From: Gammaproteobacteria bacterium
GTDB lineage: Bacteria > Pseudomonadota > Gammaproteobacteria > Eutrophobiales > Eutrophobiaceae
Assembly (NCBI GenBank): GCA_963422205.2
Contig: CAXMWX010000001.1
Location: 416,001 to 480,000 of the forward strand
Direction of reading: 5' to 3'
DNA: 64,000 bases
Shown here: positions 19,370 through 43,253 of the stretch, piece by piece
How the letters are laid out: the number at the start of each line of letters is the position of its first letter
Numbering within the stretch: the stretch's first letter is position 1
Made by a program: the position numbers and the translations under genes
The notes under the pieces: generated by a model
What the model was told of the DNA's origin: nothing
The model's input: the letters and a program-made list of their open reading frames with translations, nothing else
The model's database searches: none

Positions 19370-20431
19370 CTAACCCGGCGACTTTGCATCCAGATAAGCG
19401 AGCAGTTCAGCATAAGCCTCTGGATAACAGGCATCAAAATCCTGTTTGTATTTCCGATAGACAATGGCCGCTGTCTCTCTGGTGTAATGGTCTTTCCATT
19501 CATCCCTGTGGGCTTGTGACTTGCGGTGATGAGGCAGGGGGTTTAAGTGGTACTTTTCTCTGATGGGTTCAAATTCTTTGATGAGGTTTTCATACCGACC
19601 GATAAAGTCAGGCGATGGCTGGTTTTTTTTGTATAGACAGAAATATTGACCGGTAAAATGTTCGTCGGTCAAACACATGGGAATTTTGTTTATTTTCTTT
19701 ATGAACGTCTCAAAGTCTTTTACCTGCCTTAAATACCCGCCCAGATAATACTGGTAGTATGAGACCATAATCCTTTCCTTATAACAGGAATAGAGCCTGG
19801 AGAAAGGATTGCGGACAAAAGTAAATTTGAAATAATCCACACTCTCCGGCAATGATCGTAAATTTCTCTGCGTGAAATTTGTTCCTTGTCCAGCAGGTTC
19901 ATCAAGCAGCGCTTCCCGAAGTGAGGTACTGGCATTCTTGCATAGATTGAAGTAGATGATATTCCTTTTCTCATCGATCACATAGTCACTGCCCCGGTAG
20001 TGAGGTATGCCCTGGTGGTTGAGTATAATAAGACGTACTGCCGACCATACAGGCTCTGGCAGGTGTTTTTTCAGCAGCGCCTTGAGTTTGGCGGTCTGCG
20101 GTCTGCGGTCTGCGGTCTGCGGTCTGCGGTCTGCGGTCTGCGGTCTGCGGTCTGCGGTCTGCGGTCTGCGGTCTGCGGTCTGCGGTCTGCGGTCTGCGGT
20201 CTGCGGTCTGCGGTCTGCGGTCTGCGGTCTGCGGTCTGCGGTCTGCGGTCTGCGGTCTGCGGTCTGCGGTCTGCGGTCTGCGGTCTGCGGTCTGCGGTCT
20301 GCGGTCTGCGGTCTGCGGTCTGCGGTCTGCGGTCTGCGGTCTGCGGTCTGCGGTCTGCGGTCTGCGGTCTGCGGTCTGCGGTCTGCGGTCTGCGGTCTGC
20401 GGTCTGCGGTCTGCGGTCTGCGGTCATTCAT
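19370..20431 (-). CDS. Sulfotransferase family 2 protein with N-terminal (DRRPQTA)16 tract
   Basis: PAPS-binding-like [35 protein letters not shown]; AT-richer than the flanking core genes. Confidence 0.85.
20090..20425. repeat. Heptanucleotide simple sequence repeat (GACCGCA on minus strand), about 48 units
   Basis: 336-nt tract of TGCGGTC on the plus strand, starting two codons after the sulfotransferase ATG; the last unit has one mismatch. Confidence 0.97.
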
Positions 20432-20505
20432 AATGTTCTACCAGAAAACAGCGTACTTGGCAAGCTGGCTCTGATGTTGGCCGGGAGGGTCTGGCGGCAG
20501 ATATA

Positions 20506-20953
20506 CTACCGCTGCCGGCGTTAAGTTCAAGGGCGAGTTTTACCAGTTGCTCAACGATAGCCAGATCGCCCATCTATACACCTATCCCAAAACCCCAAAA
20601 ATGAATGCCGTGGTTGGTGAGCTTGCCGAACCATCTGCGAGCGTTCTAATCGCACCATGGTTGGTGAGCCTGTCGAACCATTCAAGAGCAGTCCTGCCTG
20701 TGCGTGTCCGCACGCAGACAGGTCGTGGACTTCCATGAACAGCTGCTGTTTGAAGACCTGCACCTGTTCAATGAAAAACTGGCCGACCTGCCTGTGCGTC
20801 CCTTCACGCAGACAGGCTGACTGGTCAAATATAACGGACTAAGACCACACAAGGGACTGGGATTACGAACACCAGTGCAGTACATTTGGTTGGTGAGCTT
20901 GTCGAACCCTATCCAGCACAACAAAAAGTGCAGTATGTGGTGGACTCATAACA
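20506..20953 (+). mobile_element. IS481-family-like element remnant 1 (3' half of transposase plus right end) interrupted by five micro-insertions
   Basis: After removing inserts it reads FKGEF..HLYTYPKTPKMNAICERxNRTIQEQFVDFHEQLLFEDLHLFNEKLADxLVKYNGLRPHKGLGLRTPVQY..KCSMWWTH (rve integrase C-terminal part) and ends ...CATAACA. Left boundary approximate. Confidence 0.8.
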
Positions 20954-20999: not shown

Positions 21000-21076
21000 T
21001 GCGGGGTGGAGCAGTCTGGCAGCTCGTCGGGCTCATAACCCGAAGGTCGCAGGTTCAAATCCTGCCCCCGCTACCA
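21000..21076 (+). tRNA. metY: tRNA-Met(CAT), initiator type (metY position)
   Basis: TGCGGGGTGGAGCAGTCTGGCAGCTCGTCGGGCTCATAACCCGAAGGTCGCAGGTTCAAATCCTGCCCCCGCTACCA; CAT anticodon, three G-C pairs in the anticodon stem, unpaired 1:72, encoded CCA. Confidence 0.97.
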
Positions 21077-21272
21077 TGTCTGCTGCCAGCATCCAGCCTG
21101 CTTCCATCCAACAAATTCACCGCCATAGCGCAAATAAGACGGCAACGACGTCCTTACAGGATAAGGACGGCCTGTCTTATAATAACAAGCAAAAGGGCGA
21201 TGGCTGGTAGCCGTTGCTGTCACATGCGTGAATTGCAAAGCAGCGCAGTCGAGAGAAGCACAACATGGCTAA

Positions 21273-24200
21273 TTGATCGTGAATGAGCAATACATTGAAG
21301 ATAAGCTGATCGGCAAGCTGTCTGATCTCAAATACACCCACCGCCCGGACATTCGCGACCGCGCTACGCTGGAGCGCAACTTCCGGCAAAAATTCGAGAC
21401 GCTGAATCGCATCACACTCACCGATGCCGAATTCAAACGACTCCTTGACGATATTGTCACGTCAGATGTCTATGATGCCGCTAACCGACTCAGAAACCGG
21501 CAAACCTTCATACGGGAAGACGGCACACCGCTCAATTATACCCTCGTCAATCTCACGGACTGGTGCAAAAACGATTTTGAGGTCATCAACCAGCTCCGCA
21601 TGAATACGGACTACAGCCATCATCGTTACGATGTGGAACTCCTTATCAACGGTATTCCCGTTGTCCAGATCGAGCTGAAGACGCTTGGCATCAGTCCGCG
21701 CCGCGCCATGGAACAGATCGTCGAATACAAAAACGATCCCGGCAATGGTTACACCCGAACGCTTTTGTGCTTTGTCCAACTGTTCATCGTCAGCAACCGC
21801 GACCACACCTTCTATTTTGCCAACAACAACCATGCTCACTTTACCTTCGATGCGGACGAGCGTTTCCTGCCCGTCTATGAGTTTGCGGACGAGGACAACA
21901 GGAAAATCACCCACCTCGATGACTTTGCCGCCCGCTTTCTTCAGAAGTGCGATCTTGGCCGGACCATCAGCCGCTACATGGTGCTCATCCAGAGCGAGCA
22001 AAAGCTCATGGTCATGCGGCCCTATCAGGTCTATGCCGTGCAGCAAATCGTCAAGTGCATCGAAGACGATGCGGGCAACGGCTACATCTGGCACACCACC
22101 GGCAGCGGCAAGACCTTAACCTCCTTCAAGGCCGCAACGCTGCTCAAGCAGAACGATGACATCCACAAATGCCTGTTCGTGGTTGACCGCAAAGACCTCG
22201 ACCGCCAGACCCGCGAGGAGTTCAACCGCTTTCAGGAAGGCTGCGTCGAAGAGAACACCAACACCGAAACGCTCGTCCGCCGGCTGTACTCTCGGGACTA
22301 TGCGGACAAGGTCATCGTCACCACCATCCAGAAGCTCGGCCTGGCGCTGGATAAAGACAGCAGGCGCAACCGGCAGCGCAAGCGCAACCACGAGCCGACT
22401 TACAAGCAACTGCTGGAGCCACTCAGCGACAAACGCCTGGTCTTCATCTTCGATGAATGCCACCGCTCGCAATTCGGCGAAAACCACAAAGCCATCAAGG
22501 CGTTTTTCCCCAAAGCCCAGCTATTTGGCTTCACCGGCACGCCGATATTTGAACAGAACGCGACCAGCACGCAGGTGACCGACGAGCTTGCCACCCTGCG
22601 TACCACCGAAGACCTGTTCCAGAAGCAACTGCACGCCTACACCATCACCCACGCCATCGAGGATAAGAACGTCCTGCGCTTTCATGTGGATTACTTCAAA
22701 CCCAATGAAGAAGACGGCAAGCACAACAAAGACGGCAACGACGACAGGCACGACAAAAAGCCACCGAAGCCCGAAGAGGGCATCGCCAAGCGCGCCGTCA
22801 TCGAAGCCATCCTGACCAAGCACGACACCGCCACTGTCGAACGCCGTTTTAACGCCATCCTCGCCACCGCCTCGATCAATGATGCCATCGCCTACTATGA
22901 TCTGTTCAAACAGATGCAAACTCGGCGACAGCAAGAAGACCCCGAGTTTCAGCCGCTGAACATCGCCTGCGTTTTCTCCCCGCCCGCCGAGGGCGACAAA
23001 GACGTGATCCAGATTCAGGAAGACCTGCCACACGAAAAACAGGACAACGCCGTTGAACCGGAAAAGAAAAAAGCCGCCCTGAAGGACATTCTGAACGACT
23101 ACAACGACCGCTATGGTGCGAACCACACGATCAGCGAATTTGACCTCTACTACCAGGACATCCAGAAACGCATCAAAGACCATCAATGGCCCAATGCCGA
23201 CTTCCCCCGGGCGCAGAAAATCGACATCACCATCGTTGTTGATATGCTGCTCACCGGCTTCGATTCCAAATACCTGAACACCCTGTACGTGGACAAGAAC
23301 CTTCAGCACCACGGCCTGATTCAGGCTTTCTCGCGCACCAATCGCGTGCTCAACGACACCAAGCCCAACGGCAACATCCTCGACTTTCGCGGGCAGCAAG
23401 CCCGCGTGGATGCCGCTATTGCGCTGTTCTCCGGCGAGAAAACCGCCGAGCAGGCGCGGGAAATCTGGCTGGTGGACAAGGCGCCCGTGGTCATCGGGAA
23501 GCTGGAGGCCGCCGTGCAGCAGCTCAGCGGTTTCATGAAATCCCAGGGCCTCGAAACCGCCCCCAAAGCTGTGCCAAACCTGAAAGGTGATGCCGCCCGC
23601 GCCGGGTTCATCAATCACTTCAAGGAAGTCCAGCGCCTGAAGACCCAGCTTGACCAGTACACAGACCTCACAGAAGACAACAAAGCCGCCATCGAGCGGG
23701 TGCTGCCGGATGAACAGCACCGCGGCTTCAAGGGTGCTTATCTCGACACGGCCCAACGATTGAAGGCGCAGCAGGGCAGGGGCAAGAGTCAAGGTGAGGG
23801 CAATGAGCCGGCGGATACCCGTAACACCACCCAACTGGATTTTGAATTCGTGCTCTTCGCCTCCGCCCTCATTGACTACGACTACATCATGCGCCTTATG
23901 ACCAGGTTCTCGGCCAACGCACCGGGCAAATCGAAAATGACCCATGAGCAGCTTATCGGCCTGATCAGCGCAGATGCCAAGTTTATGGACGAGCGCGAGG
24001 ACATCGCCGCCTACATCGCCACGCTCAAGCCCGGTGAGGGTCTCAGCGAAACCGCCATCCGCGAGGGATACACCCGCTTCAAGGCCGAGAAGAACGCCGC
24101 CGAACTTGCCGCCATCGCCGCAAGGCACGGCCTTGCAACCGAAGCCTTGCAGACCTTCGTGGATAGCATCCTTAGCCGCATGATCTTCGATGCCGAAAAG

Positions 24201-24341
24201 CTCGGCGATCTCTTCGCCCCGCTCGACCTCGGCTGGAAGGCAAGAGCCGACAAAGAACAGGCGCTGATGGCCGACCTCATCCCGCTGCTGAAAAAACGCA
24301 GCGCAGGCAGGGAGATTTCAGGGCTGACGGCCTATGAGTAA
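21273..24341 (+). CDS. hsdR: Type I restriction enzyme R subunit
   Basis: DVELLINGIPVVQIELK nuclease motif, IWHTTGSGKT, VVDRKDLD, DECHRS, GFTGTP, MLLTGFD, QAFSRTNR. Start may be GTG 21279. Confidence 0.95.
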   Translation: MIVNEQYIEDKLIGKLSDLKYTHRPDIRDRATLERNFRQKFETLNRITLTDAEFKRLLDDIVTSDVYDAANRLRNRQTFIREDGTPLNYTLVNLTDWCKNDFEVINQLRMNTDYSHHRYDVELLINGIPVVQIELKTLGISPRRAMEQIVEYKNDPGNGYTRTLLCFVQLFIVSNRDHTFYFANNNHAHFTFDADERFLPVYEFADEDNRKITHLDDFAARFLQKCDLGRTISRYMVLIQSEQKLMVMRPYQVYAVQQIVKCIEDDAGNGYIWHTTGSGKTLTSFKAATLLKQNDDIHKCLFVVDRKDLDRQTREEFNRFQEGCVEENTNTETLVRRLYSRDYADKVIVTTIQKLGLALDKDSRRNRQRKRNHEPTYKQLLEPLSDKRLVFIFDECHRSQFGENHKAIKAFFPKAQLFGFTGTPIFEQNATSTQVTDELATLRTTEDLFQKQLHAYTITHAIEDKNVLRFHVDYFKPNEEDGKHNKDGNDDRHDKKPPKPEEGIAKRAVIEAILTKHDTATVERRFNAILATASINDAIAYYDLFKQMQTRRQQEDPEFQPLNIACVFSPPAEGDKDVIQIQEDLPHEKQDNAVEPEKKKAALKDILNDYNDRYGANHTISEFDLYYQDIQKRIKDHQWPNADFPRAQKIDITIVVDMLLTGFDSKYLNTLYVDKNLQHHGLIQAFSRTNRVLNDTKPNGNILDFRGQQARVDAAIALFSGEKTAEQAREIWLVDKAPVVIGKLEAAVQQLSGFMKSQGLETAPKAVPNLKGDAARAGFINHFKEVQRLKTQLDQYTDLTEDNKAAIERVLPDEQHRGFKGAYLDTAQRLKAQQGRGKSQGEGNEPADTRNTTQLDFEFVLFASALIDYDYIMRLMTRFSANAPGKSKMTHEQLIGLISADAKFMDEREDIAAYIATLKPGEGLSETAIREGYTRFKAEKNAAELAAIAARHGLATEALQTFVDSILSRMIFDAEKLGDLFAPLDLGWKARADKEQALMADLIPLLKKRSAGREISGLTAYE

Positions 24342-24447
24342 CCCTCACACAACCTCACCCCCACGACGGGGAAACCCCGGGCAGAACAGGCGCACAGACC
24401 GGAAAATCCTGCCTATCTTCGTCATCATGTAAAACAGGTGCAGATTC

Positions 24448-25488
24448 ATGACCAAAAAGACCGACATCAACAAGGCGTTTTACACTGAAATCAGCGGCCT
24501 GCTGGCGCAGGCAAGAAGCCAGTCATACCGGGCGGTCAACATCATTATGGTGCAAACCTACTGGCAGGTCGGCAGGCGTATTGTCGAGCAGGAACAACAA
24601 GGTAGTAGCCGCGCAGGCTATGGCGAGCACCTCATCACCAGCCTTTCCAGACACCTGACCGACACCCTCGGCAAAGGCTTCTCGGAGGCCAATCTGAAAA
24701 ACATAAGGCAGTTTTATCTGGTATTCCCGGACTTTGACCAATTCGCTACGCACTGCGTAGCGAATCTCAGCTGGACCAATACCCGGACGATTATGCGCCT
24801 GGAAAACCCCGAAGAGAGAGCCTTTTACCTCAAAGAAGCCTCCTCGCAAAACTGGAGTTCACGGCAACTGCAACGCAATATCAAAAGCGACTACTACCAT
24901 CGCCTGCTATCCACCCAGCGCAACCCGGCCGCCCCGGAAACAGCGCCGCCCCAGGCGGCAGATTTTATTAAAGACCCGTACATCATGGAATTTTTAGGCG
25001 CTGCCGAGCAGATCACCAGCACGGAATCGGCGCTGGAACAAGCCCTCATTGATAACCTGCAACAGGTTTTGCTGGAACTCGGCAAGGGGTTTTCCTTTGT
25101 TGCCCGCCAGATGCGTATCAGCACCGAAACCACACATTTTTATATCGACCTGGTGTTTTACAATTATCTGCTCAAATGTTTTATCATCATTGATTTGAAA
25201 ACCCGCAAGCTCAGCCATGCCGACATCGGACAGATGGACATGTATGTCCGCATGTTTGATGCGCTAAAGCGAGGCACGGATGACAACCCGACCCTCGGCA
25301 TTATCCTCTGTACCGAAAAAGATGAGACCCTGGTGAAGTACTCGGTATTGCAGGAAAACCAGCAGCTATTTGCCTCCAAATACAAAACCCTGCTGCCCAG
25401 CGAACAGGAAATAGCCGACAGAATTGCCCGCCAGAGAACCCTGGCAGATACCCGCCAGCCATCCGGGCAATCGCGTTCAGGCCAATGA
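24448..25488 (+). CDS. YhcG/DUF1016 PD-(D/E)XK nuclease family protein
   Basis: YWQVGRRIVEQEQQG, LSWT, IKDPY..EFL, LLELGKGFSFVARQ, IDLVFYN, DIGQMDMYV, LFASKY. Confidence 0.9.
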   Translation: MTKKTDINKAFYTEISGLLAQARSQSYRAVNIIMVQTYWQVGRRIVEQEQQGSSRAGYGEHLITSLSRHLTDTLGKGFSEANLKNIRQFYLVFPDFDQFATHCVANLSWTNTRTIMRLENPEERAFYLKEASSQNWSSRQLQRNIKSDYYHRLLSTQRNPAAPETAPPQAADFIKDPYIMEFLGAAEQITSTESALEQALIDNLQQVLLELGKGFSFVARQMRISTETTHFYIDLVFYNYLLKCFIIIDLKTRKLSHADIGQMDMYVRMFDALKRGTDDNPTLGIILCTEKDETLVKYSVLQENQQLFASKYKTLLPSEQEIADRIARQRTLADTRQPSGQSRSGQ

Positions 25489-25515
25489 ATAAACCAGACA
25501 ACAATAGACAACCCC

Positions 25516-25937
25516 ATGAATCAAGATAAACCAGATGGCAATATCGTTTTGATAATTACCAACGCGCATTCAGCTTATTGCACGAAGCGATTGAATTACA
25601 AGATGACAAACCCCTGTCCGATCTGGAAAAAGAAGGCATTATTCAACGCTTTGAATACACTTGGGAACTGGCATGGAAAACCCTCAAGGATTATCTGGAA
25701 CATGAGGGTGTGGTGTTCGATAAAATCACCCCTAAAGCGGTTATCATAAAAGCCATTGAAGCAAAGGTTATCAGCAATCACGAACAGTGGATGAAAGCCC
25801 TGGACGACCGCAACAAGATGAGCCATGTTTATAACCACAGTGACTTTGAAAAAGTCATAGAAAATATTACCCGGCATTATCTGGCATTATTCGACACGCT
25901 CTATGAGAAATTGCTCAATGAAATCCTGCAACCATGA
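25516..25937 (+). CDS. HEPN toxin, HI0074/nucleotidyltransferase substrate-binding family; apparent 1-nt frameshift near 25532
   Basis: RWQYRFDNYQRA, GIIQRFEYTWELAWKTLKDYL, RNKMSHVY (RX4HXY); ATG 25516 (MNQDKP) is one base out of frame with the rest. Confidence 0.85.
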
Positions 25938-27652
25938 ACAACGACATTGACCACGGACTATCGCCCGGCGAATTACGCATCGTGCGGAACATCCTCAGCC
26001 CCTACCAACAACACATTGATAAAGTCGGTATTTTTGGCTCCAGGGCAAACGGCAACTATAAAGAATACTCCGATATTGATTTAGTGCTCTATGGCAACCT
26101 GGCCCAACAAGACCTGGCCCGCCTGCATACCCTGTTCGATGAAAGCCAATTAGGGGTAAGGGTGGACATCAATGCCTATCACCTGATTGCCTATCCCCCG
26201 CTGAAAAGACATATCGACAGCAAACACAAAACGCTGTTTACCGGCCAGGATTTACACCATGGGGGTGAGTTGCCTTCGGCTACGCTCAGGCAGCGGTCGG
26301 GGGGTGAGTCAGACAGTTCAACAGCGGTGGGTGAGCGGAGCCGAACCCCCGAATTGCGTTTCCCGGAATTTCGGGACAAGGGGGAGTGGGAGGTGAAACG
26401 AATTGATGAAATTGCCGATGTTGTTGCTTCCGGCGATTTAGATAAAGAATCTTTTTCACCACAAATGACGGATGAACATGTTTTTCCTATTTACTCCAAT
26501 TCTGTATCTAATGAAGGCTTGTACGGATACAATAACTATTCGAAATATCAGCCAAATAGCATCACAATTACCGCAAGGGGGACATTAGGAGTTGCCTTTG
26601 TAAGAAATACTGAATTTGTTGGTATTGGAAGACTTTTGGTTGTTTCTGAGTTGAGAAATATCGATCCAATATTCTTAAAAGAAAACTGGAATCAATATGC
26701 CAGAATTCCCCTTGAAAATGGCGGTATTCCGCAACTTACTGCGATAAAAACTAAAAGTGTTTCTTTGCTGTTTCCAGAGTTTGAAGAACAACAAAAAATC
26801 GCCGATTGCCTGTCTTCCCTTGACGACCTGATTGGCGCGCATATCGAAAAGCGCGAAGTGCTCAAAGCCCACAAGCGCGGCCTGATGCAACAGCTTTTTC
26901 CTCCGCCGCCTTCGACTACGCTTAAGAATCGGTCGGGTGGTGAGTCAGATAGTTCAACAACGGTGGGTGAGCCGCCTTCGGCTACGCTCAGGCAGCGGTC
27001 AGATAGTTCAACAGCGGTGGGTGAGCGGAGCCGAACCCCCGCATTGCGCTTCCCTGAATTTCGGGACAGTGGGGCGTGGGAGGAAAAAGAACTAGGAATG
27101 GTGAGTGATGTTCGGGATGGTACCCATGACTCCCCCAGATTTGTCAGTACAGGAATGCCACTCGTAACATCAAAAAATTTACTCGCTGACGGCTCATTAG
27201 ACCTCGGTAACGTAAATCTGATCTCAAATAAAGACTATGAGAAAATAAACAAGCGTTCAAACGTAAACGTAGGCGACATACTTTTCGGGATGATAGGAAC
27301 AATAGGAAATCCCGTTTTAGTTGAGTCTGATGAATTTGCAATAAAGAATGTCGCTCTAATCAAAGAAAAGAATGAGTTATTAAACGAATACCTTGTCTAT
27401 CTTTTAGACAGCCAATACATGTTTGATAAATTTCAGATGTTAGCTACTGGAAATACTCAGAAATTTATTGCTTTGGGAAAAATAAGAAGTCTAGTGGTGC
27501 CGCTACCAGTAAAAAAAGAACAACAAAAAATCGCTTCCTGCCTGTCATCTTTAGATGAGTTAATCACCGCCCAGTCGGAGAAAATCGCCCAACTGCAACA
27601 ACACAAAAAGGGCCTGCTGCAGCAACTTTTTCCTCGTGTTACAGGAGAATGA
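25934..27652 (+). CDS. hsdS: Fusion: N-terminal MNT nucleotidyltransferase antitoxin plus type I RM specificity subunit with two TRDs
   Basis: Residues 1-~105 contain FGSRANGNYKEYSDIDL (GSX10DXD); then PELRFPEF, TRD1, EQQKIADCLSSLDDLI..K..LMQQLFP, PALRFPEF, TRD2, EQQKIASCLSSLDELI..KKGLLQQLFP. Start overlaps the HEPN stop (ATGA). Confidence 0.9.
   Translation: MNNDIDHGLSPGELRIVRNILSPYQQHIDKVGIFGSRANGNYKEYSDIDLVLYGNLAQQDLARLHTLFDESQLGVRVDINAYHLIAYPPLKRHIDSKHKTLFTGQDLHHGGELPSATLRQRSGGESDSSTAVGERSRTPELRFPEFRDKGEWEVKRIDEIADVVASGDLDKESFSPQMTDEHVFPIYSNSVSNEGLYGYNNYSKYQPNSITITARGTLGVAFVRNTEFVGIGRLLVVSELRNIDPIFLKENWNQYARIPLENGGIPQLTAIKTKSVSLLFPEFEEQQKIADCLSSLDDLIGAHIEKREVLKAHKRGLMQQLFPPPPSTTLKNRSGGESDSSTTVGEPPSATLRQRSDSSTAVGERSRTPALRFPEFRDSGAWEEKELGMVSDVRDGTHDSPRFVSTGMPLVTSKNLLADGSLDLGNVNLISNKDYEKINKRSNVNVGDILFGMIGTIGNPVLVESDEFAIKNVALIKEKNELLNEYLVYLLDSQYMFDKFQMLATGNTQKFIALGKIRSLVVPLPVKKEQQKIASCLSSLDELITAQSEKIAQLQQHKKGLLQQLFPRVTGE
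26272..26348. repeat. REP-like inverted-repeat unit inside hsdS at the MNT/HsdS junction
   Basis: CCTTCGGCTACGCTCAGG ... GGTGAGCGGAGCCGAACC, with arms complementary at 13/14 positions. Confidence 0.75.
26908..27038. repeat. Tandem REP-like units inside the hsdS central linker
   Basis: CCTTCGACTACGCTTAAG...GGTGAGCC then CCTTCGGCTACGCTCAGG...GGTGAGCGGAGCCGAACC; direct repeat of 26272-26348. Confidence 0.75.
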
Positions 27653-29362
27653 AATATGAATAATACACTGAAACTCAACTCAAAAGATGAGTCATTAAGA
27701 GAAGTATTAAGCAATGGCAAGAAATACTTCGTGCCCAAATTTCAACGCGATTATTCATGGGAAAATGAGCATTGGGAAATCTTCTGGGAGGATATAGAAA
27801 ATGTATTGCAGGGAGAAAATGAATATCATTATATGGGTTACTTGGTGCTGCAAGAAGCCGAACAAAATCAATTCAAGATTATTGATGGACAGCAGAGACT
27901 CACAACCTTTTCTTTACTGGTGCTGGCCGCTATCAAGCGGCTGAAAGACGCAGCGCAGAATGAACAGGAACGCATGGATGAGTTACATAAGAATTTTATA
28001 GGGAGTAAGGATTTAATAAAACTTCAGATGACCAATAAGCTGAAATTAAACAGAAATAATGAGTATTACTTTAACGAGGCTGTCGCTGGCCATGATTTGC
28101 CTAAACGGGGAGTGAAGAAAACCGTGCATCTGATGAGAAAAGCGCTCGATTATTTCTATGGTGCTTTTGGGGATAAAACCGGGGAAAAGATCGGGGAAAT
28201 TATCGAAACGACCAGCCAGAATCTGCTTTTTACGACGATCTACATCGGCAGTGAACTCAATGCGTACAAGGTTTTTGAAACACTGAATGCGCGTGGTGTG
28301 CAGCTCTCTTCTGGGGATTTATTAAAAAATTATCTCTTCTCTGTTATTGATCAAAAGAACACGGCACCGGATGAAGTGATTGATCGATTGGATAAGAAAT
28401 GGGAGAAAATTGGCAGCGACATAGGTGATAATCATTACACGGATTACATTTTGTGTGACTGGAACAGCGCCCATTCACTCGTGAGAAAATCCGCGTTATT
28501 CAAAGAGATTCGAGATGAACTGGACACAACTGAAAAAGCGGATAATTACCTAAGCAGGTTAGCAAATAACAGTCAGCTTTATCATGCGCTGTTGAATCCT
28601 GATGATGAATTCTGGAAAGGTGATCAAGACTATCTTGCAATCAAAACCGATCTGCTTTTTTTGCGCCTGTTCAATATCAGGCAACCAGTCAGTCTGCTTT
28701 ATGCTGCCCACCTGAATACGCGGAACAGTTTCGCAAAAATATTACACTGGATTGCTTTGTTTTCGTTGCGATATAACGTGATATGCAGAGAACCCCCCAG
28801 TGAACAGGAAAGGCTTTACAACAAGATAAGTGTGTTGTTGTCAAACTCTACGGAGGGGACAAGTCAATTATTGCATAAAATCAAAAAAGAGATTGAAAGG
28901 CTCTGCCCTATGGATGAGGAGTTCAAGCAGAATTTTACGAATAAAACCATGCCGACCGAACAGTCCAACAAAAAAGCCCGTTATCTGCTCGCCAGATTGG
29001 CAGAGCAAGGCGGAGCGAATGCCATAGATGAGACCAGGCTGACCGTTGAGCATATTTTGCCTGCTCATCCAGAGAGTGAATGGATTGATGATTTTGGCGA
29101 TAACTGGCAGCTTTTCACGCAAAGAATCGGCAATATGGCGCTGGTTACCAAGAATCAAAATGAGCGGTTAGGGCAGCAGGCTTTTGCAGATAAAAAACAG
29201 ATATTATGCGCTTCTGAATACGCCATTAACGATGTTGCGGATTATGAAACATGGGATTCCCAGAGCGTTGAATCACGGCAGAATCGCTTGGCAGACATTG
29301 CCGTTCAGCTTTGGCGAATAGATTGATCACCGCCCAGTCGGAGAAAATAGCCCAACTGCAAC
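27563..29362. repeat. 37-bp direct repeats flanking the GmrSD-like gene
   Basis: ATCACCGCCCAGTCGGAGAAAAT(C/A)GCCCAACTGCAAC at 27563-27599 (inside the hsdS 3' end) and 29326-29362. Confidence 0.9.
27656..29326 (+). CDS. DUF262 + DUF1524 (GmrSD-like) nuclease
   Basis: VPKFQRDYSW, IIDGQQRLTT, FETLNARG (DUF262) and C-terminal TVEHILP, IGNMALV..N (HNH-like DUF1524); AT-rich. Confidence 0.88.
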   Translation: MNNTLKLNSKDESLREVLSNGKKYFVPKFQRDYSWENEHWEIFWEDIENVLQGENEYHYMGYLVLQEAEQNQFKIIDGQQRLTTFSLLVLAAIKRLKDAAQNEQERMDELHKNFIGSKDLIKLQMTNKLKLNRNNEYYFNEAVAGHDLPKRGVKKTVHLMRKALDYFYGAFGDKTGEKIGEIIETTSQNLLFTTIYIGSELNAYKVFETLNARGVQLSSGDLLKNYLFSVIDQKNTAPDEVIDRLDKKWEKIGSDIGDNHYTDYILCDWNSAHSLVRKSALFKEIRDELDTTEKADNYLSRLANNSQLYHALLNPDDEFWKGDQDYLAIKTDLLFLRLFNIRQPVSLLYAAHLNTRNSFAKILHWIALFSLRYNVICREPPSEQERLYNKISVLLSNSTEGTSQLLHKIKKEIERLCPMDEEFKQNFTNKTMPTEQSNKKARYLLARLAEQGGANAIDETRLTVEHILPAHPESEWIDDFGDNWQLFTQRIGNMALVTKNQNERLGQQAFADKKQILCASEYAINDVADYETWDSQSVESRQNRLADIAVQLWRID

Positions 29363-29528
29363 TGTGCCGTTCTGGGCCTGATGCTTATTTCATTGGGAAA
29401 TCCCTTCGGGCGATTTATCTACCTTATCCTATTGATAATAAAGATATTTTTTATTTCACTGGAAAATACTTTTGACACAGATTGCCACCGAAGAGGCAAG
29501 TAAAGAGAAAAACCCTGAACCCTGAACC

Positions 29529-31169
29529 ATGACCGACGAAGATCAAAAACAACTGGGTAGCACCCTCTGGAAGATTGCCGATGACCTGCGCGGGGCGATG
29601 AACGCCGATGACTTCCGCGACTACATGCTGTCCTTCCTCTTCCTGCGTTATCTCTCCGACAACTACGAAGCGGCGGCAAAGAAAGAACTCGGCAGAGACT
29701 ATCCCGAGACTGGCGGCGACAGCGCCGAGGTGCCCCTGGCGCTCTGGTATGCAGATAACCAGGACGATACCACAGCGTTTGAAAAACAGATGCGGCGTAA
29801 GGTGCATTACGTGATCAAGCCGGAGCACCTGTGGAGCAGCATCGCCAATCTGGCACGCATGCAGAACAGCGAGCTTCTGAACACACTGCAAGCGGGCTTT
29901 AAATACATCGAAGAGGAATCCTTTGAGAGCACGTTCTCCGGCTTGTTTTCGGAAATCAACCTCCACTCCGACAAGCTCGGCAAAACCTATGAAGACCGGA
30001 ACGCCAGGCTTTGCACTGTCATTCAAAAAATAGCCGAAGGATTGAACGCCTTCTCAACGGACATCGACACACTGGGCGATGCCTATGAATACCTGATCGG
30101 TCAGTTCGCCGCCGGGTCCGGCAAGAAGGCCGGCGAGTTCTATACGCCGCAGCAAATCTCCGACATCTTGTCTGCCATCGTTACGCTGGACAGCCAGGAA
30201 CCAAAAACCGGCACGAAAGAGCGGCTGACGACGGTCATGGATTTTGCCTGCGGTTCTGGCTCGCTGCTGCTCAACGTGCGTAAACGGATAAACAACGCAG
30301 GCGGCACTATCGGAAAAATTTTAGGCCAAGAGAAAAACATCACCACCTACAACCTGGCCCGAATGAACATGTTGTTGCACGGGGTGAAGGACACGGAGTT
30401 TGACGTCTTCCACGGCGACACGCTGGGCAACGAGTGGGACAGCCTGCGCGAGTTGAACCCGGCCAGGAAGCCAGCCTTTGACGCCGTTGTCGCCAACCCG
30501 CCGTTCAGCTATCGCTGGACGCCCGGCGAGGGCATGGGTGACGATGTGCGCTTCAAAAGTCATGGGTTGGCGCCCAAGTCCGCCGCCGATTTTGCGTTTC
30601 TGCTGCACGGTTTTCATTATCTGAAAGACGATGGGGTCATGGCCATCATTCTGCCGCACGGCGTGCTTTTCCGTGGCGGGGCAGAGGCGCGCATCCGCAC
30701 CAAATTGCTGCAAGATGGCCACATTGACACGGTCATCGGCCTGCCGGCCAATCTGTTCTACTCCACCGGCATCCCGGTGTGCATTCTGGTGTTGAAAAAA
30801 TGCAAAAAACCCGATGATGTGCTGTTTATCAATGCCAGCGAGCATTTTGAGAAGGGCAAACGCCAGAACCAGCTCAAACCCGAGCACATCGACAAGATCA
30901 TCGACACCTATCAGTATCGGAAAGAGGCCGACCGCTGGGCCCGCCGGGTGGAAATCGCCGAGCTCGAGAAGAATGACTACAACCTCAATATCTCGCGCTA
31001 TGTCAGCACGACCAGAGCTGAAGAGGAAATTGATTTAACCCAGACCCACCAGCGACTGCGCCACATCGAAAACCGGATGCACCAGGCGATGGACAAGCAC
31101 AATGCGTTTCTTGCCGAACTGGGGCTGCCCCGCCTGCCACTTTTGCCCGAAGCAGATAACATTGACTGA
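29529..31169 (+). CDS. hsdM: Type I restriction-modification methyltransferase subunit
   Basis: LWKIADDLRGAMNADDFRDY, GEFYTPQ, DFACGSGSLL, ANPPFS, LPHGVLFRGG, YNLNISRYV. Confidence 0.96.
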   Translation: MTDEDQKQLGSTLWKIADDLRGAMNADDFRDYMLSFLFLRYLSDNYEAAAKKELGRDYPETGGDSAEVPLALWYADNQDDTTAFEKQMRRKVHYVIKPEHLWSSIANLARMQNSELLNTLQAGFKYIEEESFESTFSGLFSEINLHSDKLGKTYEDRNARLCTVIQKIAEGLNAFSTDIDTLGDAYEYLIGQFAAGSGKKAGEFYTPQQISDILSAIVTLDSQEPKTGTKERLTTVMDFACGSGSLLLNVRKRINNAGGTIGKILGQEKNITTYNLARMNMLLHGVKDTEFDVFHGDTLGNEWDSLRELNPARKPAFDAVVANPPFSYRWTPGEGMGDDVRFKSHGLAPKSAADFAFLLHGFHYLKDDGVMAIILPHGVLFRGGAEARIRTKLLQDGHIDTVIGLPANLFYSTGIPVCILVLKKCKKPDDVLFINASEHFEKGKRQNQLKPEHIDKIIDTYQYRKEADRWARRVEIAELEKNDYNLNISRYVSTTRAEEEIDLTQTHQRLRHIENRMHQAMDKHNAFLAELGLPRLPLLPEADNID

Positions 31170-42200: not shown

Positions 42201-43253
42201 TGTATGTATAACTTCAGAAACACACTGCACTACTCAGAGAGAAAGCGAGAGCACTATCAGCATATAGGGTATCGAATAAAAGACTTTTATCGCACGGGCA
42301 GCCATGCAATAAGGGCGGACATGAATAATCAAATCGCCGCACAGCGTCCCTGCTTGCGTGCTGCGTGCAGGCAAGTCAGTGTGCTTAGATTCTGGGACAA
42401 GCATGGCCTGACCCGCCCTTGACCACAGTGGCAGTGGTTCGACAAGCTCACCCACCAGAGCCGCCGTACCCTGTATGCCTGGCGCAAAGCCTACCGCGAG
42501 TGGGGACTGTCTGGCTTGTGTCCGACCCCCAAAGCACCGAAGCGCACTCGCCGCTGACCACAAGCGGTTATCCAGCAGATACGCCAACGGCGCCAAGACC
42601 TGCCCAATCTGGATAAAGAGCAGTGTCAGGTACTGCTCAGATCCTGGTGTCAGGCCAGGGGATTGCCCTGTCCCAGTACTTCGACCATTGGCCGCCCTGT
42701 CTGTGCGGGTACGCAGACGGGCTGATTGCCGATACCCCCGACAAGAGGCGAATCTCACCCCCGGCCTTGAGCCCGAAGGGGAAAGCCAAAGCCTATCGAA
42801 GAACCCCCGTCACACGCCGCCCTAAAGGCTATCGCCCCAGCCAGATTGGCGAGTGTGTGGGACTGGACGCCATCGAGCGGCGTAGGCAGGTGGCCGGGGG
42901 GTATCTCCTCACCTCTATTGACGAAGCCAGTGGCTATGCCTTAGTCCTGGCGGTGCCGAAACGGAGCAGCCAAGCTGCCAGAGACTTCTTTGAGACGTGT
43001 TTCCGCTTGACCCCCTTCCCCATCCAGCAGGTGATTACCGACAGTGGCGTTACGTTCAAGGGCGCGTTTGACCAACGGCTCAATGATAGTCAGATCCTGC
43101 ATCTATACACCTATCCCAAAACCCCCAAAATGAATGCCGTGGCTGGTGAGCTTGCCGAACCATCTGTGAGCGTTCTAATCGCACCATGGTTGGTGAGCCT
43201 GCCGAACCATATCCAGTACAACAAAAAGGGCAATATAGTGGTGGGCGCATACA
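42201..43253 (+). mobile_element. IS481-family-like element remnant 2 (both ends present, transposase pseudogene)
   Basis: Starts TGTATG...CACACTGCAC and ends ...CATACA; fragments LRFWDKHGL, SRRTLYAWRK, PSTSTIGRLIAD, GECVGLDAIE, QQVITDSG.TFKG.F, HLYTYPKTPKMNA; 3' part highly similar to 20506-20953. Confidence 0.82.

Follow-up and report, generated by a model that had tools for sequence, protein, structure and literature searches.

Short palindromic inserts in insertion sequence remnants of a gammaproteobacterial genome and their association with small GIY-YIG nuclease cassettes

The DNA analyzed here (the window) is a stretch of 64,000 nucleotides (positions 416,001 to 480,000 of contig CAXMWX010000001.1) from the genome of a Gammaproteobacteria bacterium of the family Eutrophobiaceae (assembly GCA_963422205.2; 2.99 Mb in 14 contigs, ~55% G+C, 97.97% complete). 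It carries two damaged copies of an IS481-family insertion sequence (IS) that are interspersed with short inserts of three families, designated A, B and C; for A and B we found copies in many other phyla and, in some of them as well as in this genome, an association with small GIY-YIG nuclease genes. The first IS copy is a remnant placed between a tandem heptamer array (20091-20425) and a tRNA-Met gene (21000-21076), with a type I restriction-modification (R-M) cluster next to it. The two copies and their inserts are the following.

20517..20953, + strand: 5'-truncated 3' remnant of an IS481-family element (rve transposase), aligning with approximately residues 241-345 of the intact homologue P0001; right end ...GGTGGACTCATAACA
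20611..20633, + strand: family A insert A1, 23 nt, frame-breaking; flanks ..AATGCCG / TCTGCGAG.. (NAV/CER); empty site in C9:98280-98550
20658..20680, + strand: family A insert A2, 23 nt, frame-breaking; flanks ..CGCACCA / TTCAAGAG.. (NRT/IQEQ); missing from four paralogous copies
20693..20722, + strand: family B insert B1, 30-nt hairpin between QEQ and FVD, in frame and stop-free
20787..20816, + strand: family B insert B2, 30-nt hairpin between LAD and (W)LVKYN, in frame and stop-free, reading LPVRPFTQTG
20887..20909, + strand: family A insert A3, 23 nt, final base C, frame-breaking; 3' of ..CAGTACAT(T); empty site in C9:98280-98550
42206..43253, + strand: second IS481-like copy with both ends present (TGTATAAC...CATACA) and an internal deletion; one of seven copies 97-99.9% alike
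42349..42375, + strand: family C hairpin insert, 27 nt, in frame at the transposase N-terminus; missing from C7:344650-345050
42435..42457, - strand: inverted family A insert A0, between HSG(R) and SRRTLYAW
42696..42721, + strand: family B variant, 26 nt, frame-breaking, between TIGR and LIAD
43140..43162, + strand: family A insert A1 of the second copy (pattern match)
43187..43209, + strand: fused A2/A3 copy marking a ~230-bp deletion (pattern match)

The identity of the host element is provided by the intact homologue P0001, a 348-aa protein with rve, rve_3 and HTH domains that is 65% identical to the remnant over its uninterrupted core and reads ...KMNAVCERFNRTLQEQFVDYREILLFDDLALFNERLADWLVKYNSARPHKGLGLKTPVQVII... 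without any insert; the window remnant corresponds to a P0001-like protein plus five additional segments. This comparison with an intact homologue, suggested in an earlier note made from the window sequence by eye, defines the junctions and bears out the note's claim of five inserts within 300 bp of a transposase remnant: all five are present in the window, P0001 is devoid of them and paralogous copies display empty sites. P0002 carries the NCBI name 'IS481 family transposase', and an uninterrupted 139-aa transposase piece scored 29.5 bits against PF00665, below the cut-off of 32.6. The termini, read in 8-10 copies, are of the TGT...ACA type (left TGTAYAAGTTCAGAAAC, right ..GGTGGACTTATACA), and short terminal inverted repeats of this type are typical of the IS481 family. 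No clear target duplication is readable in the IS flanks, several copies being truncated or bordered by common flanking repeats. Derivation of the family A ends from those of the IS was considered and rejected, the latter (TGTAYAAG..) being unlike A.

Every family A insert is 23 nt long and of the form TGGTTGGTGAGCYTGYCGAACC(A/C), with 5-bp inverted ends (TGGTT/AACCA) enclosing a conserved core, TGAGCYTGYCGAA; family B inserts are imperfect hairpins of 26-30 nt of the form CCTGYCTGTGCG-loop-CGCAGACRGG. The family A pattern (up to three mismatches) matched the window at six places (20611, 20658, 20887, 42436 on the - strand, 43140 and 43187) and nowhere in 100 shuffles, and the family B pattern matched at 20693-20722 and 20787-20816, again with none in the shuffles. 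Filled and empty sites differ by the insert exactly and no target duplication was found at the insert junctions, in agreement with the original description. The inserts are real and precise. They sit where they had been placed, although the best junctions fall 1 nt away from those first drawn; GCCG/TCTGCG, for instance, brings back NAVCE. The second IS copy was likewise said to carry the motifs, which it does, but four of its insert sites had gone unlisted (C, the inverted A, the 26-nt B variant and the fused A2/A3). Folding separates the families: B folds well (-6.3 to -9.3 kcal/mol, z -2.5 to -3.1; B and C together -6.3 to -9.3 kcal/mol, z -2.1 to -3.1) and A weakly (-1.3 to -3.4 kcal/mol, z -0.4 to -1.7).

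Approximately 15 copies or fragments of the IS481-like element exist in this genome, a full-length copy measuring ~1250 bp, and seven of them are 97-99.9% alike. Eight insert sites are recognizable in the family (C, A0, the 26-nt B variant, A1, A2, B1, B2 and A3), seven of which are filled in a full copy, A2 occurring in some copies only. Empty sites and deletions were read from an alignment of 14 paralogous copies. The copy at C9:98280-98550 lacks both A1 (ATGAATGCGGT/CTGCGAG) and A3 (CAGTACAT/TATCCAGCA), four copies lack A2 (CGCACCA/GTCAAGAG) and C7:344650-345050 lacks the family C insert, while deletions by recombination between inserts join A2 to A3 in four copies (42206-43253 of the window among them), A1 to A3 in one and B1 to B2 in two. 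These empty sites and deletions indicate that an IS lineage in the course of diversification acquired the inserts singly, and that its later copying multiplied them; for annotation purposes, the inserts explain the frame breaks and internal deletions of the IS copies. The stretch is also present, as contigs only, in two sequencing runs. A 23-nt omission at A2 and a 276-nt skip from A1 to A3, found when three runs were aligned with the stretch, equal paralogous copies of the assembly and carry no information on excision or expression.

A tblastn search of the genome with P0001 found no intact IS481-like copy, the alignments breaking at the 26-nt B variant and at A1, and a plasmid collection searched with the full IS copy gave no match. 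That seven copies 97-99.9% alike, located at different loci, have frame-breaking inserts in common could be explained if the inserts were skipped at the RNA or translation level in the manner of mitochondrial bypass elements, which would account for the multiplication of frame-broken copies. Yet the copies also harbor in-frame stop codons and a large internal deletion, and mobilization in trans, or segmental duplication as suggested by flanks that some copies have in common, is simpler; we consider bypass barely credible.

The distribution of the inserts within this genome is highly restricted. All 33 matches to family A (11 exact, 21 with one mismatch, one with two) and all 32 matches to its 13-nt core TGAGCYTGYCGAA are inside IS481-like copies, and the four matches to a variant core, TGAGCGKAGYCGAA, are all inside the hsdS gene of the window, at two places.

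26270..26349, + strand: two in-frame hairpins in hsdS, core TGAGCGKAGYCGAA in both orientations, linking the N-terminal nucleotidyltransferase domain to the first target-recognition domain
26905..27039, + strand: second in-frame hairpin cluster of the same superfamily in hsdS, preceding the second target-recognition domain

The claim that the motifs are found only in IS remnants and, in related form, in hsdS extends from the window to the whole 2.99-Mb genome, and since IS-derived DNA makes up ~0.5% of that genome, a random spread of the inserts is excluded. A family B profile retrieved 26 copies at E<=0.004 (next match, E=2.2): 16 in IS481-like copies; six in three copies of an IS1595-family remnant, where 27-nt and 30-nt inserts stand in frame; three in a ~110-bp segment adjoining the IS1595 remnant, one of them standing alone between leuD and a neighbouring gene; and a weak match at C11:176846 (E=0.0007) to which no IS context was assigned. 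A 14-mer census of the genome revealed no abundant intergenic repeat family of the usual repetitive extragenic palindromic (REP) kind, and a strict hairpin scan for more B- or C-like elements, of poor design, gave four unrelated matches only. The commonest 14-mers belong to a single ~36-nt repeat present in ~162 copies (..CTTCAATGAGGCCGAAGCGTAATGCTTCGGAATAC..), presumably one or more large arrays of clustered regularly interspaced short palindromic repeats (CRISPR).

Outside this genome, the exact A 22-mer was scanned in species-representative genomes and family B in metagenome stretches, both counts being lower bounds. None of 60 relatives had more than one near-match to the A core. The 22-mer was nevertheless present in at least 117 stretches from many phyla, where we estimate ~1 by chance, and family B in at least 119 metagenome stretches (~3 by chance, also by our estimate). 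Among the matches listed, hosts of the A 22-mer include cyanobacteria (Nostoc, Anabaena, Dolichospermum, Cuspidothrix and Trichormus loci), Bacteroidales, Treponema and other spirochaetes, Fibrobacter, Lachnospiraceae, Microbacterium (Actinomycetota), Mariprofundaceae, Planctomycetota and a methanogen-related archaeon. In these hosts, A stands alone, in head-to-tail arrays with a period of 23, beside sister units with other stems and the same core, in the middle of longer repeats, or within tandem heptamers, the latter in cyanobacterial loci (e.g., L029, L054, L096, L128, L130). Four genomes contain 597, 145, 93 and 76 copies of the A core, against 0-2 in a reversed control. Family B copies, 27 or 30 nt long in 85 of 98 cases, are often nested inside another B, and B occupies the centre of a flanking palindrome in 11.5% of cases compared to 1.4% of random positions (A, 0.8% compared to 1.1%). 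Open frames of at least 200 aa contain 36 of 98 copies in family B and 30 of 118 in family A; the corresponding fractions for random positions in the same loci are 0.63 and 0.69. In other genomes, A and B are mostly, and far from exclusively, intergenic. An Rfam search with nine A-rich loci and one IS copy returned sub-threshold partial matches to RF02901 on tandem A arrays only.

This dispersal bears on why the inserts are located where they are. The earlier note had offered two options, a host system that writes short palindromes into mobile-element DNA to silence it and ultra-small hyperparasites mobilized in trans. The former is suggested by the location of the copies of this genome in IS or R-M genes and by the fact that most A inserts break the transposase frame. 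The B inserts, however, preserve the frame, the same elements occupy hundreds of mostly non-IS sites in other genomes, and no candidate machinery was found; moreover, the near-identity of IS copies bearing the same inserts indicates that most copies result from IS multiplication rather than from repeated targeting. We found no evidence in support of silencing, which is highly improbable, and the dispersed copies of the four abundant genomes speak against a general writing into mobile DNA. Arrival of the inserts with horizontally transferred genes, followed by IS copying, accounts at least equally well for their confinement to IS and R-M genes: near-identical IS copies with common inserts, relatives without them and dispersal elsewhere all indicate that most inserts were probably acquired with travelling genes and multiplied with the IS.

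A second possibility is that A and B belong to the usual REP/REPIN type and owe their movement to a REP-associated tyrosine transposase (RAYT), an IS200/IS605-like Y1 transposase. Like REPs, they are short imperfect palindromes in many copies that create no target duplication and are frequently clustered or in tandem in other genomes, and all three families fit the 20-40 nt imperfect palindrome by which REPs are recognized, A folding weakly. Conceptually, this system is also the nearest to ours, in that a nuclease gene is flanked by inverted copies of the repeat. The resemblance ends there. Searching for PF01797, the RAYT domain that had been put forward as a candidate, gave no match in this 97.97%-complete genome, while a control search was positive in six of 14 known genomes, and no RAYT-like cluster emerged from the open reading frames (ORFs) of the 117 A loci. 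REP ends bear a conserved GTAG or CGTC tag according to a passage of PMC3733652; no such tag is present at the ends of 134 A and 126 B copies among the matches listed. REPs are predominantly extragenic, whereas a quarter to a third of the A and B copies lie in long open frames, and A and B are 23-30 nt singlets as opposed to REP doublets. The REP-like nature proposed for the inserts holds for the imperfect palindrome and fails on RAYT, tag and extragenic location, and movement by RAYT is very unlikely.

The statement in the earlier note that no candidate enzyme is visible is accurate for the window but not for the genome. Three GIY-YIG matches were found: an open frame of 620 aa, a length like that of UvrC, a protein of 256 aa that looks SprT-like by eye in its C-terminal half, and the following gene.

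C14:105001-107466 (L132 547-3012), - strand: 821-aa site-specific DNA methyltransferase with an in-frame GIY-YIG cassette (PF01541, 65.6 bits)

The cassette on C14 is a 109-aa in-frame segment between YERQHYI and GVNPNLR whose DNA ends are inverted repeats, CCTGCCTGCCCGCC / GCGCGGCAGGCAGG, resembling the arms of family B. Of the best 120 homologues of the methyltransferase, 115 have no GIY-YIG domain on record, and the three that were aligned lack the cassette segment. In P0005, the same site holds the cassette, and a solo B reading LPVRCTQTG is present at another position; compared to P0005, the left end of the C14 cassette contains an additional small nested insert (RLLAAQG). In P0008 a homologous cassette occupies another site. 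A further case, L197, was found among the family B loci: its methylase ORF of more than 1116 aa, on a contig with four B copies, contains an in-frame cassette 51% identical to that of C14, with ends CTTGCCTGCGCCGC / GCGGCAGGCAGG and B copies ~240 bp away on each side.

Searching a protein library with the C14 cassette returned 7726 proteins at E<=0.001, 450 of them at E<=1e-10. The best 150 matches comprise 12 proteins of up to 150 aa and 101 of more than 300 aa, in which the domain is found at many different internal positions. The segment begins with LPAP (L, P and P conserved in at least 90% of 98 aligned cassette proteins) and closes with RQAG (A and G conserved to the same extent in a 101-protein alignment), and both peptides encode B-like arms. 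In the 98-101 aligned proteins, the Y, G, R, H and E columns show little or no variation, in keeping with the hallmarks of the GIY-YIG fold as given in passages of PMC1564403 (GIY...YIG motifs, a central Arg and a C-terminal Glu). Foremost among the hosts of more than 300 aa is HsdS (75 of 98), a count inflated by the splitting of these hypervariable proteins into many 50% clusters. Other R-M hosts are HsdR (2), DUF1156 methylases (2), type III methylases (2), an HsdM-type protein (1) and an N6_N4 methylase (1), and the remainder are scattered housekeeping proteins such as trigger factor, QueC, TatD and arginyl-tRNA synthetase. The excess in R-M genes suggests a real target bias. Insertions of this type have a precedent in the HsdR protein of Methylococcus capsulatus, in which Dunin-Horkawicz et al. 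2006 (PMC1564403) describe a GIY-YIG domain at approximately position 800, termed 'very recently inserted', and an 80%-identical homologue without it. The phenomenon is the same as in our cassettes; the passages of that paper that deal with HsdR present an isolated domain insertion, with no mention of bounding inverted repeats, miniatures, multiple sites or an HsdS excess.

Family A led to a sister subfamily of nucleases. Clustering of the ORFs around the 117 A loci yielded no family present in more than eight loci, the largest cluster being ABC-type ATPase-like by sequence and judged unrelated; one ~100-aa GIY-YIG nuclease recurred in four loci from four phyla. In L082, a copy of A precedes the GIY-YIG start by 60 bp (PF01541 match, 69.7 bits). 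In L099 and L092, the GIY-YIG cassette lies in frame inside hsdR, bounded in L099 by an inverted A on the left and an A-like repeat on the right, with a solo hairpin further upstream. Additional small GIY-YIG genes occur in three A-holding genomes; two instances have such hairpins on their flanks and the third has other repeats. When GIY-YIG loci were ranked by likeness to the gene of L136, at least two core hairpins were found within 300 bp in eight of the top nine, against none in 32 lower-ranked rows (30 loci). Long database relatives of the A-type subfamily are mostly free-standing genes with read-through extensions, the best 120 including three located in HsdS and another three in housekeeping proteins. 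GIY-YIG genes with the motifs on their flanks, which had been named among the things worth looking for, are found at A-type loci and in L197, and the C14 cassette has B-like ends. We note that in L176 (G107:C1:2385500-2388800), a GIY-YIG gene of another subfamily has on both sides a direct repeat encoding ENPAWNDLAVGFGL; such direct repeats raise the possibility that other GIY-YIG subfamilies have flanking repeats of their own.

On these grounds, we lean towards the view that A and B are gene-less, miniature non-autonomous derivatives of GIY-YIG cassettes that were carried and amplified together with dead IS copies. The autonomous parent would be a small cassette with an Slx1/YhbQ-like GIY-YIG nuclease as its sole gene, bounded by A- or B-type repeats, and the nuclease would act in trans on hairpin ends. 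B would represent the gene-less form of the GIY-YIG cassette, and A would play the same role for the sister subfamily. Cassettes and solo hairpins are frequently read through in frame, such that host genes can tolerate them. In the present genome, the inserts would have entered the IS481-family element at no fewer than eight sites and the IS1595-family element at no fewer than three, after which the broken IS copies would have multiplied and lost segments by recombination between inserts. The IS/R-M-only pattern would reflect horizontally travelling genes as carriers and, for the cassettes, R-M genes as favoured targets. Of the two options of the earlier note, hyperparasites mobilized in trans is the one that fits best.

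The principal competing explanation is that the hairpins spread by another mechanism, a possibility likewise left open for the small dispersed repeats of cyanobacteria, and that the GIY-YIG genes are separate selfish, homing-type genes with a preference for landing in or beside them. The association would in that case be genuine, without the nuclease being what moves solo hairpins. We regard this scenario as rather unlikely. Several of our observations argue for it, and others count against the miniature-derivative model. A gene is present at only four of at least 117 A loci and at only one (L197) of at least 119 B loci. Some hairpin-rich genomes lack a matching GIY-YIG gene: an Anabaena genome with 93 core copies and a Mariprofundaceae metagenome-assembled genome with five tandem A copies have UvrC-type GIY-YIG genes only, and the genome under study itself is devoid of a free-standing A-type gene. 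When 300 genomes of the phylum were sampled without bias, the core was found at one of 29 fetched GIY-YIG loci, and the sole positive locus belongs to a genome with 145 core copies and a second flanked GIY-YIG gene. Four of the eight positive A-type loci (L136, L021, L099 and L092) had been found via motif A and are not independent, and a close relative, L149, is without core hairpins. In L082, a ~100-bp multi-hairpin unit occurs in two direct copies with the gene in between, an arrangement that resembles insertion into an array already present, and REPs are known targets of IS elements. The arms of B (CCTGCCTGTGCG / CGCAGACAGG) are similar, not identical, to the ends of the C14 and L197 cassettes, and the link between the nuclease and hairpin movement is one that we infer from association and from this likeness of ends.

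Other difficulties of the same model concern the history of the inserts in this genome. Among copies 98-99% alike, the presence of A2 and two types of single-nucleotide polymorphism in the preceding 24 nt occur in all four combinations, which points to recombination between copies or to repeated gain or loss of A2. That A2 does not track adjacent polymorphisms leaves room for recent local gain, loss or recombination, and weakens a purely 'imported' history. The multiplication of seven near-identical copies that share frame-breaking inserts, in a genome where no intact copy was found, also counts against the model.

Against secondary landing of the nuclease genes, a gene between two hairpin arms is structurally equivalent to an element with terminal repeats accompanied by its miniature. 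Cassettes with the same end peptides are found at different sites of one gene family, and they reside in many unrelated host proteins in which a pre-existing hairpin would not be expected. If the miniature-derivative model is pursued one step further, the cassettes may form an undescribed class of mobile element: a GIY-YIG cassette of ~300-400 bp with hairpin-forming inverted repeats, inserting in frame and without target duplication preferentially in R-M genes, and shedding solo hairpins of 23-30 nt across phyla. We put this forward tentatively and hold it to be possible rather than probable. Were it true, it would also supply the missing enzyme for the small dispersed repeats (SDRs) of cyanobacteria.

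SDRs are 21-27 nt repeats of Nostocales that occur inside heptamer arrays and nested in one another. Elhai et al. in 2008 are said to have described eight families of them in Nostoc and its relatives. Based on that description, as opposed to a comparison of sequences, they are akin to A and B in their size (~20-27 nt), dispersal, apparent mobility and want of a known enzyme; A is likewise found in Nostocales genomes inside heptamer arrays or longer units, and B copies are nested. The hosts of A and B, in contrast, span many phyla. SDRs are mentioned in passages of PMC3116915, PMC2884548 and PMC3733652. Text searches, covering few subscription journals, found no paper connecting prokaryotic GIY-YIG genes with hairpin repeats or miniature elements, and the insert DNA and peptide strings retrieved nothing relevant from the searched literature text. 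As far as these searches show, the link of small repeats to GIY-YIG cassettes and their in-frame residence in R-M and transposase genes are apparently undescribed.

Other known systems are more distant. Bacterial miniature inverted-repeat transposable elements (MITEs) are 70-300 bp long according to a section of PMC3733652. B recalls them in that its arms resemble, without matching exactly, the ends of a cassette stripped of its gene; A and B are far smaller and without target duplication, and their parent nuclease would be of the GIY-YIG fold, not a DDE transposase. Palindromic elements of ~100-150 bp, restricted to Rickettsia, are tolerated in frame in protein-coding genes. They share with A and B the palindromic structure and the in-frame insertion in coding genes, and we know of no nuclease gene associated with them. 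GIY-YIG homing endonucleases reside in group I introns or inteins and possess an added DNA-binding domain. The cassettes differ from them in being read through in frame, and neither an additional Pfam domain nor a match to inteins or introns was found in them.

Very small dispersed repeats have lacked a mechanism ever since they became known in 2008, and an association with a specific nuclease subfamily makes the question amenable to testing at the bench. If GIY-YIG cassettes are their autonomous partners, bacteria would possess a GIY-YIG-driven transposable element beside the REP/RAYT system, which relies on a Y1 enzyme of the HUH type, and an explanation would be at hand for many of the odd 'fusion' proteins and spurious read-through ORFs that databases contain. 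The heavy colonization of hsdS would then suggest an influence on the evolution of restriction specificity.

Beside the tRNA-Met gene that follows the first IS remnant, positions 21000-31169 of the window form a defence island with the following genes.

21273-24341: hsdR
24448-25488: YhcG/DUF1016 PDDEXK gene
25934-27652: hsdS, encoding a 572-aa fusion of an N-terminal nucleotidyltransferase domain (Polbeta / NTP_transf_2) and a two-domain specificity subunit, joined by the in-frame hairpins
27656-29326: GmrSD type IV restriction gene
29529-31169: hsdM

Directly downstream of the second IS copy, a ~60-bp segment that contains the beginning of a short ORF (..ATCGTAAAAGTGCAGTCTTCACGTCATGAACACGG..) is found at ~43270 and again at ~43613. 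On the other side of the first remnant, the 89-bp stretch that separates it from the heptamer array (20430-20518) is 100% identical to C7:127185-127273. The array itself (20091-20425) consists of 47.9 perfect tandem copies of GCGGTCT, ends ~90 bp from the IS remnant and falls within the 5' portion of a sulfotransferase-family ORF of 353 aa (19370-20431, - strand), in which it encodes ADRRPQT repeats. Since a change in heptamer copy number would shift the frame, this ORF looks like a contingency locus.

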